Sequence record: NZ_CP118102.1
Source of the DNA: a plasmid
Reading direction: 5' to 3' (one strand)
DNA length: 64,000 bases
Below the pieces are notes generated by a model. That model did not search any database, was not told where the DNA came from, and worked only from the letters and a program-made list of their open reading frames with translations. This document shows positions 56,799-58,199 of the stretch, in pieces (within the stretch, counting starts at the first letter, position 1; every line of letters starts with the position of its first letter). The translations under genes and the position numbers were made by a program.

Positions 56799-58199
56799 AT
56801 GTCTAACAACAATTATGGTCAAGGTGATCTATTCTCTTATTTTGGTGATGATTTCGCTGAAGCATTAGAATATGAGGAGAAGAATAAACTACAGCATACT
56901 TCTGACCAATCTATTGAAGAAGATCATAAAGATAACCCTCCATCAGAGAGTCTTACTTCTGATCCAGCAGCTGAAAAAAGTCAAGGTGAAAGCCGTCCGA
57001 CGAAGCTAATCTCACTGGAATCGCGCAGAAGAGTATCAGATTCTTTCTCTAATGATGGTTGTCCTGATGCATGTTCTGATAAAGAATTAGATGACGATGA
57101 AAAAGATGCTTTAGAGGATAAGGCAAGCGATGAACAAGAAGCGGACAAGCGTGAGCTCAGTGGGGAAAGCGGAAACACTTCTGTGATCAAATCAGATGAA
57201 AAAACACCAGTTACCGCTAAGAAGGAAATAGAAAAACCAGAACTGAATCATGCTACCTTTATTTGCTACTCAGGGCTAAGCATTTCTATAACAAAATTCT
57301 TCTCTGAGGATAAGCTAGCTGGTCTTGAGCTTGAGGATGTTCGGAAACGCCTGGAAAAAGATTACCCAGAGCTTTCAAAACAGCGGACAAAAATGGATTG
57401 GGACAAGAAGAAAAATATAATTGTGCCTATGGTCACCGGTGGAAAAAAAGGGGCCCGTTTTACAAATGGCACTCGTGGTTTTTATTCATCTTCTCAAGAA
57501 CTCATTGAGCATCAGGAGCCAATATCCTACCTTGCTGCACAAGATGGGTACTATGAAATACGAGAGAACCTGATAGGAGTATTTATAGGGAGAACGGCTG
57601 CTGAAGAGCTGATTGAATGGGAAGGATTCTCTGTATTTAATTCAGTCTTACCCAAACATCTAGATCGTGAGCCTTGCAGACCTGGATTTAAATACAAATT
57701 ACCTAAGATACCCAAGCAACTCTTTGCTCAACTGGTCTCCTTTTTTATGGACTATACAGATTACGATGTGGAGGTTATGGGTGTTTTCTACTACGATATT
57801 GATCGCCAGCAGTTTATTTTGGATGTTCCTTATCAATCTGTCACCAAATATTCAGTTAACCCTTGGTACTCTGTTTATCCCGGACATGTAGTTAAGGTCG
57901 CTGAAATCCATTCACATAACACGATGCGTGCAGATTTTAGTTCGATTGATGATGAAGATGAAGTAGGGACCATGTTATACGGAGTAGTTGGTAAGATCAA
58001 AAAAGGACATGCAACAGACGTGTTTTTTGATGTCAGGACTCGTGCAGGAATGGCAGGAAAGTTCATACCTATCGATCCCAAGGTATTTATCGAAGGAGAA
58101 TTAACGAGTAACCGGCTAAATAATCATATCGATTATGTCGCCTATCCTAAAGACTGGGTTAAAAAGGTGACAATCATAGGAGGCAATAGAAATGATTAA
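56799..58199 (+). CDS. ubiquitin-like (beta-grasp) domain ending in Gly-Gly fused to a C-terminal JAB/MPN (JAMM) metalloprotease, preceded by a roughly 150-aa acidic disordered N-terminal region
   Basis: AGGAGG RBS. JAMM motif EIHSHNTMRADFSSIDD (H-x-H-x7-S-x2-D) with upstream Glu (DVEVMG). Residues about 150-213 (ATFICYSGLSISITKFF...KNIIVPMVTGG) form a Ubl-sized segment ending GG at 214-215 (nt 57438-57443), immediately before the JAB domain. The N-terminus is D/E/S/K-rich low complexity. Confidence 0.7.
   Translation: MSNNNYGQGDLFSYFGDDFAEALEYEEKNKLQHTSDQSIEEDHKDNPPSESLTSDPAAEKSQGESRPTKLISLESRRRVSDSFSNDGCPDACSDKELDDDEKDALEDKASDEQEADKRELSGESGNTSVIKSDEKTPVTAKKEIEKPELNHATFICYSGLSISITKFFSEDKLAGLELEDVRKRLEKDYPELSKQRTKMDWDKKKNIIVPMVTGGKKGARFTNGTRGFYSSSQELIEHQEPISYLAAQDGYYEIRENLIGVFIGRTAAEELIEWEGFSVFNSVLPKHLDREPCRPGFKYKLPKIPKQLFAQLVSFFMDYTDYDVEVMGVFYYDIDRQQFILDVPYQSVTKYSVNPWYSVYPGHVVKVAEIHSHNTMRADFSSIDDEDEVGTMLYGVVGKIKKGHATDVFFDVRTRAGMAGKFIPIDPKVFIEGELTSNRLNNHIDYVAYPKDWVKKVTIIGGNRND

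Follow-up and report, generated by a model that had tools for sequence, protein, structure and literature searches.

The type 6d operons described by Iyer et al. in 2006 comprise a ubiquitin-like protein (Ubl) with a conserved C-terminal glycine, an α-helical protein, an E2 without the classical histidine, a JAB peptidase that carries a JAB-N domain, and an E1 (PMC1779556). In the ParB-related, ThiF-related cassettes (PRTRC), the corresponding components are PRTRC_C (the Ubl; Prok_Ub, PF14454), PRTRC_A (the JAB, consisting of Prok-JAB and DUF2016/JAB-N), PRTRC_B (the E2), the PRTRC ThiF protein and an α-helical protein. Here, we describe a relative of these systems on a plasmid (sequence record NZ_CP118102.1), of which a stretch of 64,000 nucleotides, referred to below as the window, was analyzed. 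An open reading frame (ORF) at positions 56799–58199 of the window encodes a protein that carries the Ubl as an N-terminal fusion to the JAB, whereas in type 6d and PRTRC the Ubl is a separate gene.

Other described systems share parts of this arrangement. The Bil (BilABCD) and Bub systems follow the same logic of Ubl, E1, E2 and peptidase (Chambers 2024; Hör 2024; Gong 2024, PMC11601603), and their Ubls carry diverse N-terminal domains, some being joined at their C-terminus to E2 (PMC11601603). The Ubl TAPI of the lambda-type tail-assembly genes is fused to a JAB in an E. coli prophage (PMC1779556). That protein, like the one described here, holds Ubl and JAB in one polypeptide, but the JAB in the present case is the system's own dedicated peptidase, encoded in an operon with E1 and E2.

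An original prediction, made from the DNA sequence, had taken the Ubl to be joined to a probable JAB deubiquitinase at a Gly-Gly pair, behind a long acidic N-terminal extension. Based on the homologies of the domains, the junction between them and the operon, we see a slightly better than even chance that the gene encodes the precursor of a PRTRC/type 6d modifier, which would be processed by its own JAB and then conjugated.

Domain organization of the fused protein and its junction

The ORF is a genuine gene: its ATG is preceded, 8 nt upstream, by an AGGAGG Shine–Dalgarno sequence, the N-terminus of the product is in register with the N-termini of its homologues in the alignment, and the product is 100% identical to the P. 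urinalis plasmid hypothetical protein PUW24_00595. Two AlphaFold models were made, one of the full-length protein with a 72-sequence alignment and one of residues 1–222 with a 26-sequence alignment, and these were consistent with each other. The protein consists of three parts: an acidic, mostly disordered tail (residues 1–150), a β-grasp Ubl (≈151–218), and a JAB/JAMM peptidase (219–466), of which residues 221–466 were predicted as a confident two-part domain. Residues ≈151–213 were modeled as strand–strand–helix–strand–strand with a predicted local distance difference test (pLDDT) score of 88–96, and the predicted Ubl thereby has the β-β-α-β-β order and the length of ≈60–75 residues expected of a β-grasp domain.

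By profile comparison, the C-terminal half is a homologue of PRTRC_A, with both JAB-N and JAB. An hhalign comparison of residues 216–466 with canonical PRTRC_A (PF14464 plus PF09436/DUF2016) gave Prob 98.3% and E = 1.3e-14 over 166 columns, and the alignment spanned residues 240–428 of the protein and 29–202 of PRTRC_A, including the “DGLW/DGYYE” region of JAB-N. Residues E325 (within “EVMG”), H371, H373, S381 and D384 were invariant in 72 homologues and form the E...HxHx7Sx2D signature of a JAMM/MPN+ peptidase within an MPN fold. The NCBIfam model TIGR03735 scored the protein at 22.6–24.3 bits against a curated cut-off of 101.8, and the protein is thus not a PRTRC_A equivalog. The central idea of the original prediction, a Ubl-sized β-grasp domain fused in cis to a JAMM peptidase, is therefore borne out, both by the fold predicted for residues ≈150–213 and by the alignment of the JAMM domain, in which the catalytic geometry and motif are intact.

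Residues 214–219, G-G-K-K-G-A, are encoded by GGT GGA AAA AAA GGG GCC at 57438–57455, and the G214-G215 pair, at 57438–57443, lies where it had originally been placed. In the AlphaFold models, the Ubl/JAB junction is a flexible, low-confidence linker: there is a dip in confidence at residues 214–220, and residues 217–219 are below pLDDT 50. In 39 full-length homologues (42–66% identity; from Paenibacillus, Cohnella, Thermobacillus and Bacillus), G215, K217 and G218 were invariant, and G214 was replaced by K or L in five. Both K217 and G218 were at least 90% conserved in 72 sequences. Since distant metagenomic homologues have lost the GG (AQSKGE, AKKKGV, SGSKGC) and kept the K-G, the conserved feature is not GG but a GxKG sequence that ends at G218, and its conservation exceeds chance. 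The GG that had been read as the Ubl/JAMM boundary overlaps by one residue with this motif, G215-x-K217-G218, but is not itself conserved across the family.

Canonical free PRTRC_C (Pfam Prok_Ub) has a sharply conserved AVG[T/R]KG motif. Word-indexed homologue searches with the PRTRC_C and PRTRC_A of Manganitrophus gave 5 and 4 proteins, respectively; the free PRTRC_C set was gathered by exhaustive phmmer, which gave 585 matches at E ≤ 0.001, and the best 146 motif-containing representatives were counted. GxKG was the exact C-terminus in 10 of these 146, while the other 136 carried a variable extension of 22–197 residues after the KG, most commonly of 55–77 residues. Extended proteins with PGAP annotation include those of Manganitrophus and Nostoc (PGKKG/TSS, with the slash after the motif). 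Precursor forms thus appear to be the norm in PRTRC_C. In the fused protein, too, the glycine of GxKG is internal rather than C-terminal, and the residue that follows KG is small in fused and free families alike.

When the fused Ubl segments were compared with PRTRC_C in hhalign, 56 columns were aligned (Prob 74%, P = 2.9e-5), and the terminal KG of PRTRC_C fell on K217-G218. A “YPEL” helix end is common to the fused Ubl and the Manganitrophus PRTRC_C, at a distance of 26 and 27 residues, respectively, from the terminal glycine. A PRTRC_C profile gave a weak match in hmmsearch (E of 0.002–0.3 in an 85-sequence set), and a PDB sequence search with the protein returned low-complexity matches only. 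These comparisons point to a modest homology between the Ubl domain and PRTRC_C, weaker than that between the JAB half and PRTRC_A. Because the junction lines up with the GxKG end of free PRTRC_C, the scissile bond is predicted to lie between G218 and A219, three residues beyond the site after G215 that had first been suggested.

Two further possibilities were considered. The sequence at 57444–57452 (GGA AAA AAA GGG G) contains an A7 run followed by G4, with a slippery “A AAA AAA” register exactly at the Ubl/JAB boundary. A programmed frameshift was rejected, as homologues use AAG AAA or AAG AAG, and the shifted frames add 19–45 junk residues instead of stopping. The A7 run is not conserved in the homologues and is therefore probably incidental, although it might be prone to slippage. 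A stand-alone Ubl was also sought. None of the ORFs of at least 25 residues in the 54.4–61 kb region had a Ubl-like pattern or a glycine end; the 56-residue ORF that precedes the JAB in B. cereus does not encode a Ubl, and an 88-residue ORF in locus L002 ends in RRYCI.

Operon context and distribution of the fusion

The operon has the order α-helical gene, E2, Ubl–JAB and E1, and the genes are translationally coupled, with the stop codon of the α-helical gene overlapping the start of E2 and the start of E1 overlapping the stop of the JAB. The E2 matched PF14460 with E = 2.3e-13 and 50.6 bits (cut-off, 25) and TIGR03737 with E = 4.4e-15, the latter at a score short of the curated cut-off, and its Cys159 is invariant in a comparison with canonical PRTRC_B. 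The E1 matched PF00899 (E = 1.7e-7; 31.1 bits against 28.1) and TIGR03736 (E = 6.8e-19; 68 bits against a cut-off of 144.75). Residues G22, G24, G25, G27, D52, N60, D131, R136 and C220 of the E1 are invariant relative to canonical PRTRC ThiF. The E1 has no rhodanese domain and adjoins the JAB.

The locus shares with type 6d/PRTRC its gene set and order, a Prok-E2_D E2 with its cysteine, JAB-N, a PRTRC-ThiF-like E1, the GxKG end of the Ubl, and carriage on plasmids or mobile elements. It differs, apart from the fusion itself, in that the Ubl bears a 150-residue acidic tail with a terminal Q-x-D-L-F-x-x-F, which is absent from PRTRC_C, that the E2 lacks the downstream histidine, that the scores of three NCBIfam models are far below their cut-offs, and that there is no adjoining ParB gene. 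No match to ParB was found among the scanned ORFs of the window or within 10 kb on either side of the Paenibacillaceae homologues, and no match to PRTRC_E or PRTRC_F among the window ORFs tested; the canonical loci L005 and L006 have ParB-E-C. The low NCBIfam scores and the lack of ParB in Paenibacillaceae indicate that, by sequence, the operon is a divergent relative of PRTRC/type 6d and not an equivalog.

The families first proposed for comparison, Bil, Bub and Cap3, turned out not to be the relevant ones; the Prok-E2_D, PRTRC_A and PRTRC-ThiF relationships place the system with PRTRC/type 6d instead, and with BilC and Cap3 there is a likeness of fold alone. Assignment to Bil, Bub, CBASS or 6A-MBL was rejected, as PADLOC and NCBIfam gave only weak E1 matches: PADLOC found no Bil match for any of the four operon proteins, and only weak CBASS-type “E1-E2” matches for the E1. 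Unlike Bil and Bub, the present system has a family D E2, a peptidase rather than an E2 as the fusion partner, and a Ubl that ends in KG, and it lies in a plasmid replication and repair neighborhood instead of a defense island. It differs from type II CBASS, with its Cap2 (E1-E2) and Cap3 (JAB), in having no CD-NTase, separate genes for E1 and E2, and a dedicated Ubl domain.

A related E1 is found on 426 plasmid records, of which 152 are from Bacillus. The same protein layout, with an N-terminal hydrophobic motif, a charged linker, a Ubl that ends in xxKG followed by a small residue, and a JAB, occurs on three other groups of plasmids (last rows of Table 1), and BFVD phage proteins of 392–560 residues align with it over ≈300 columns. 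In the jumbo Bacillus phage Edson (L017, 233.8 kb), three adjacent unannotated genes at 4180–7264 encode proteins of 241, 459 and 285 residues. The 459-residue protein has an N-terminal JAB-N/JAB-like region and ≈245 extra C-terminal residues, an arrangement that differs from the plasmid fusion.

In the 2006 supplement, the operon of B. cereus pBc10987 was entered under type 6d as “E2 -> alpha-helical -> JAB -> alpha-helical -> E1”, with no Ub (PMC1779556). The fused Ubl was therefore evidently not recognized at that time. In a Nostoc plasmid operon of the kind entered as lacking Ub, a Ubl is found two genes upstream; it ends in KKPGKKG, which is followed by an 80-residue extension.

Five homologues (P0036, P0039, P0042, P0045 and P0046) were inspected as candidate splits at KG and proved to be truncations or insertion-disrupted genes instead. 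Four of them end abruptly: of P0036, P0039, P0042 and P0046, three stop at the catalytic H-S of HSH, followed by V[RC][VI]VP[KR]Q[ST]A, and one stops inside JAB-N with GVRRS. Judging from these sequences, the abrupt ends resemble insertions within the gene, possibly group II introns. The loci of B. cereus and P. urinalis have ltrA genes in their vicinity.

In plasmids of Thermobacillus and P. rhizovicinus, the gene order is PadR, a DinG-like helicase, YdjM, GerE, a 113-residue gene, the ≈240-residue α-helical gene, E2, Ubl–JAB, E1 and a PAPS-reductase. In the present plasmid, a gene of the PAPS-reductase family likewise lies 370 nt after the E1 (PADLOC BrxP, E = 1.7e-7, in addition to the matches in Table 1). 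A homologue recurs 0.4–5 kb downstream of the E1 (at 2–5 kb in L004, L005, L009 and L010), also in distant plasmids, including an Alteromonas PRTRC locus. Whether this gene is functionally linked to the operon is uncertain.

Table 1. Features of the operon and its surroundings, with window coordinates, and the corresponding fusion proteins of other plasmids. A slash marks the end of the KG motif.
Feature	Position (nt)	Strand	Remarks
5' fragment (62 codons) of the ≈243-residue α-helical gene, first gene of the operon	12308–12494	+	Alignment matches it to the N-termini of the uninterrupted L010 and L009 genes
High-GC insertion of 43,015 bp, splitting the α-helical gene	12495–55509	.	GC 0.53–0.66, compared to ≈0.35–0.46 in the flanks
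3' fragment of the α-helical gene	55510–56051	+	31–35% identity to L009:8538–9242 and L010:8496–9236 from “HIEE...” on
E2-like protein (Prok-E2_D/PRTRC_B-like), 237 residues	56048–56761	+	Candidate catalytic Cys159 (nt 56522–56524)
Fused Ubl–JAB protein, 466 residues	56799–58199	+	N-terminal tail, Ubl, JAB-N and JAMM, in that order
N-terminal short linear motif, residues 8–19 (QGDLFSYFGDDF)	56820–56855	+	Resembles clamp-binding motif
Acidic, mostly disordered linker, residues 20–150	56856–57248	+	Conserved islands at ≈69–77, 86–92, 97–106 and 110–122
Ubl (β-grasp) domain, residues 151–218	57249–57452	+	Homologous to PRTRC_C/Prok_Ub (modest, by sequence)
G215-K216-K217-G218 (GxKG), predicted mature C-terminus	57441–57452	+	Predicted scissile bond G218/A219 (57452/57453)
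JAB-N (α+β) domain, residues 219–300	57453–57698	+	“AAxDGxYEIRE” signature, including R255
JAMM/MPN+ catalytic domain, residues 301–466	57699–58196	+	E325 at nt 57771–57773; H371-S-H373-x7-S381-x2-D384 at nt 57909–57950
E1-like ThiF-family adenylating enzyme, 277 residues	58192–59025	+	GAGGNGG nucleotide loop at residues 22–28; conserved Cys220
Terminator-like hairpin after E1, probable end of operon	59239–59259	+	9-bp stem and T-rich tail; consensus scan only
PAPS-reductase/SspD-like PP-loop protein	59396–60193	+	SGGADS and Cys-rich motifs; PF01507 E = 2.6e-9; PADLOC SspD E = 1.6e-15
Fusion on B. cereus-group megaplasmids			NLFDFF ... TVGAKG/AS
Fusion on Terribacillus plasmid			EQTDIFSLF ... 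LQAKKKG/GP
Fusion on Lysinibacillus pBsph			NVSIFDV ... FAGSKG/AG

The acidic tail and its N-terminal motif

A long, acidic and largely disordered extension does precede the Ubl, as had been described: residues 21–150 include 37 D/E, 19 K/R and 18 S and were mostly predicted with pLDDT below 55, and within residues 1–150 the exceptions to the generally low confidence are a short N-terminal element and two short helices at residues 99–105 and 112–120. The tail is not, however, 150 residues without features, since it contains a conserved N-terminal motif and several conserved islands, one of which (residues 86–92) reads D-x-C-x-D-x-C. A Ubl with such a tail had been expected to be unusual, but among bacterial Ubls an N-terminal extension as such is not, given the diverse N-terminal domains of the Bil and Bub Ubls (PMC11601603). 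We considered that the tail might be a homologue of PRTRC_E, but there was no hidden Markov model match and no convincing similarity by eye.

The motif Q8-G-D-L-F12-S-Y-F15 opens the tail, and L11, F12 and F15 are invariant among the full-length homologues. Relative to the invariant F (63/63), the wider profile has Q at –4 in 21 of 63 members, D at –2 in 48, L at –1 in 54, and F at +3 in 55, and this anchor F lies at residues 4–25 in 62 of the 63. The conservation is position-specific and extends across all subgroups. Of 77 members, 55 had a match to a relaxed pattern, [SDN][LIFM]F..[FIM], no further than 45 residues from the N-terminus, compared to 11 of 682 other windows of 45 residues.

Bacterial proteins that bind the sliding clamp, DnaN, have the consensus QL[SD]LF or QxxLF (PMC12309361). 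As a sequence pattern, Q8-G-D-L-F12 fits this consensus, and its position near the N-terminus on a flexible linker is the usual setting for clamp-binding motifs. It is unlike them in that the Q is present in only about one third of the Ubl–JAB family and that the additional conserved F at +3 is outside the classical motif. A dnaN gene adjoins related operons in a metagenomic contig (L001), B. cereus (L004), a Pseudomonas megaplasmid (L006) and Terribacillus (L014:323–1444), and dnaX and holB directly follow the E1 in Lysinibacillus pBsph (L013).

SSB, Rad52, RecA and helicases are also common neighbors of PRTRC-like operons. In a Nostoc cf. commune plasmid, the gene just upstream of the Ubl gene (L011:1358–2002) encodes a protein with a long disordered tail, the very last residues of which, TTQISLF, provide a near-perfect clamp-binding pentapeptide.

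Proposed processing and alternative readings

Eukaryotic ubiquitin–ribosomal protein and polyubiquitin fusions are precursors that are cut by peptidases, and in H. volcanii a linear SAMP1–MoaE fusion is cleaved by HvJAMM1. In the fused protein, as in these precursors, a peptidase would have to expose a C-terminal glycine, but the junction has KG with a small residue after it, in place of GG. We propose that the JAMM domain would cut after G218, in cis or between molecules, yielding a 24.5-kDa tail–Ubl (residues 1–218), whose C-terminal glycine is free, and a JAB-N/JAB enzyme of 28.5 kDa (residues 219–466). The ThiF-like E1 would then adenylate G218, and the modifier would pass to Cys159 of the Prok-E2_D E2 and from there be conjugated to a target; the freed JAB might also reverse the conjugation. 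The Q-x-D-L-F-x-x-F sequence at the end of the flexible acidic linker may serve as a docking peptide that steers the modifier or the enzyme, for which the DnaN clamp would be the best candidate partner.

Several observations weigh against this proposal. G218 is only ≈3 residues from the first strand of JAB-N, and this closeness may impede cleavage in cis for steric reasons. Within the fused clade, a search for natural variants divided precisely at KG gave none. The sequence link between the Ubl and PRTRC_C is modest: the hhalign probability drops to 37% with the close family alone, and the Ubl domain has no Pfam or NCBIfam match even at E ≤ 10. The Paenibacillaceae E2s, including the one in this operon, have FFNSPNSDC where canonical members have S..NxH, with Asp/Cys in the place of the “absolutely conserved” downstream His. 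As to the motif, the clamp-like Q is lacking in about two thirds of the members, no dnaN was found within 10 kb in the Paenibacillaceae loci, and the motif had a pLDDT of 77 when modeled with the JAB half, compared to 63 without it, and gained secondary structure only in the presence of the JAB half. This rise is a weak hint that the motif may dock on the JAB half instead. The PRTRC papers listed by a literature search included no functional study and no demonstrated cleavage, activation or conjugation. Finally, the operon is disrupted in this plasmid, and the E1 is disrupted in a sister plasmid.

The disruption was apparent from a blastn comparison with the sister plasmid of P. urinalis, NZ_CP118110.1 (L008). 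Window positions 1873–12494 and 55510–58270 are 99.99–100% identical to that plasmid and adjacent there, and the α-helical gene, intact in the sister plasmid, has 243 residues. The intervening DNA at 12495–55509 is therefore an insertion. Its cargo includes MFS, TetR, ABC, FAD-oxidoreductase and UbiA genes, and no terminal inverted repeats were found for it. In the sister plasmid, a Tn3-family transposase and resolvase at 11334–15025, along with ≈13 kb of cargo genes for carbohydrate metabolism (hxlAB, zwf, gnd, pgi), lie inside the E1 gene. One system has thus suffered two independent disruptions, and it is probably crippled in both plasmids, although the Ubl–JAB ORF is intact in both. With its first gene split, the present copy may no longer work as a system.

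It is an even question whether the locus in this plasmid is a decaying remnant, in which the protein may still be made and may still process itself while the complete system has ceased to function. This would apply to the present copy only and not to the mechanism of the family. Besides splitting the α-helical gene, the insertion cuts E2, JAB and E1 off from their former upstream DNA, promoter-like sequences around the operon are no more frequent than expected by chance, and the otherwise 99.99–100% identical sister plasmid has its own insertion in the E1 gene. Against decay, the E2, Ubl–JAB and E1 ORFs are intact and identical to the sister plasmid copies, the insertions are evidently recent, and many other plasmids carry intact members of the family.

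The 43-kb region also contains tandem repeats, at 12658–13573 (93 nt ×3 and 132 nt ×5, inside an ORF at 12477–13799 on the minus strand that has no Pfam match) and at 22532–23151 and 39390–40008 (50 nt ×10 and 51 nt ×9). Other genes in the window include a MerA-like mercuric reductase with an HMA domain at 85–1725 and, downstream of the operon, a HicB-family antitoxin-like gene beside an XRE-type helix-turn-helix gene (60743–61431) and a tyrosine recombinase on the minus strand (61966–62913).

For the family as a whole, we also considered the possibility that the Ubl is never released and is a permanent accessory domain, like the Ubls of USP-type deubiquitinases, Rad23 and parkin, and that it docks the peptidase onto the E1, the E2 or a partner, or regulates it. 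The E1 and E2 would in that case act on another C-terminus, as CBASS Cap2 does on the CD-NTase tail. The very short linker between G218 and JAB-N and the lack of split variants in the fused clade would be explained in this way, and the conservation of K216-K217-G218-A219 could reflect a structural turn. Moreover, several type 6d operons were entered without any Ub in 2006, and CBASS sets of E1, E2 and JAB can work without a dedicated Ubl (PMC10097602). We nevertheless regard permanent attachment as unlikely. In alignment, the junction motif coincides with the actual C-terminal end of free PRTRC_C, at least one “Ub-less” operon, of the Nostoc type, does encode a Ubl that ends in GKKG two genes upstream, and the JAMM catalytic residues are strictly kept. 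In addition, no alternative glycine-terminated substrate is evident among the operon ORFs (54.4–61 kb).

If the Ubl is released, a more specific role could be that of a clamp-directed modifier, with QxDLF docking in the DnaN cleft and the long acidic linker giving the E1/E2-charged Ubl the reach to be conjugated to the clamp or to clamp-bound replication or repair proteins. We consider this quite improbable. If true, these plasmid and phage systems would be a bacterial counterpart of the ubiquitination and SUMOylation of PCNA, with which mobile elements would control replication, translesion synthesis or host takeover.

Improbable, too, in our view, is that the released Ubl is a sulfur carrier, on which the E1 makes a G218 thiocarboxylate for a PAPS-reductase/SspD/DndC-like PP-loop enzyme in the thio-modification of nucleic acids, as with ThiS, MoaD and TtuB, and that the JAB only matures the carrier. 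Neighborhoods of Ubl, JAB, E1 and PAPS-reductase for sulfur metabolism are listed in row 4e of Iyer et al. (PMC1779556). The Cys-rich PP-loop gene shortly after the E1, and its recurrence near related operons, would agree with such a role. It is opposed by the E2-like protein with its invariant Cys, a core and translationally coupled component, by the lack of a rhodanese domain in the E1, by the terminator-like hairpin between E1 and the PAPS-reductase gene at this locus, by the absence of that gene from the examined flanks of L001, L002, L013 and L014, and by the GG end of known sulfur-carrier Ubls, which differs from KG.

There are precedents for Ubl precursors, for bacterial Ubls with N-terminal extensions and for Ubl–enzyme fusions. 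What is new, relative to the searchable literature, is that the fusion partner is the system's own JAB in an operon of the type 6d/PRTRC kind, that the Ubl ends in GxKG and not in GG, that precursor forms appear to be general in this family, and that a conserved clamp-like motif sits on a long acidic linker. In that literature, the fusion is undescribed, and a later mention by the Aravind group is possible.

Type 6d/PRTRC cassettes are widespread on megaplasmids, integrative and conjugative elements and some phages, and have been known from sequence since 2006. The fused form locates the “missing” Ubl of the Bacillota operons, and the GxKG motif pins the C-terminus of the modifier. Since most free PRTRC_C proteins are also C-terminally extended, processing of the precursor by the JAB is perhaps a built-in step of the whole family. 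The presence of substrate and protease in a single polypeptide makes this step convenient to assay, and the clamp-like N-terminal peptide, together with the neighboring dnaN, dnaX and holB genes, provides a lead on the function of these systems.

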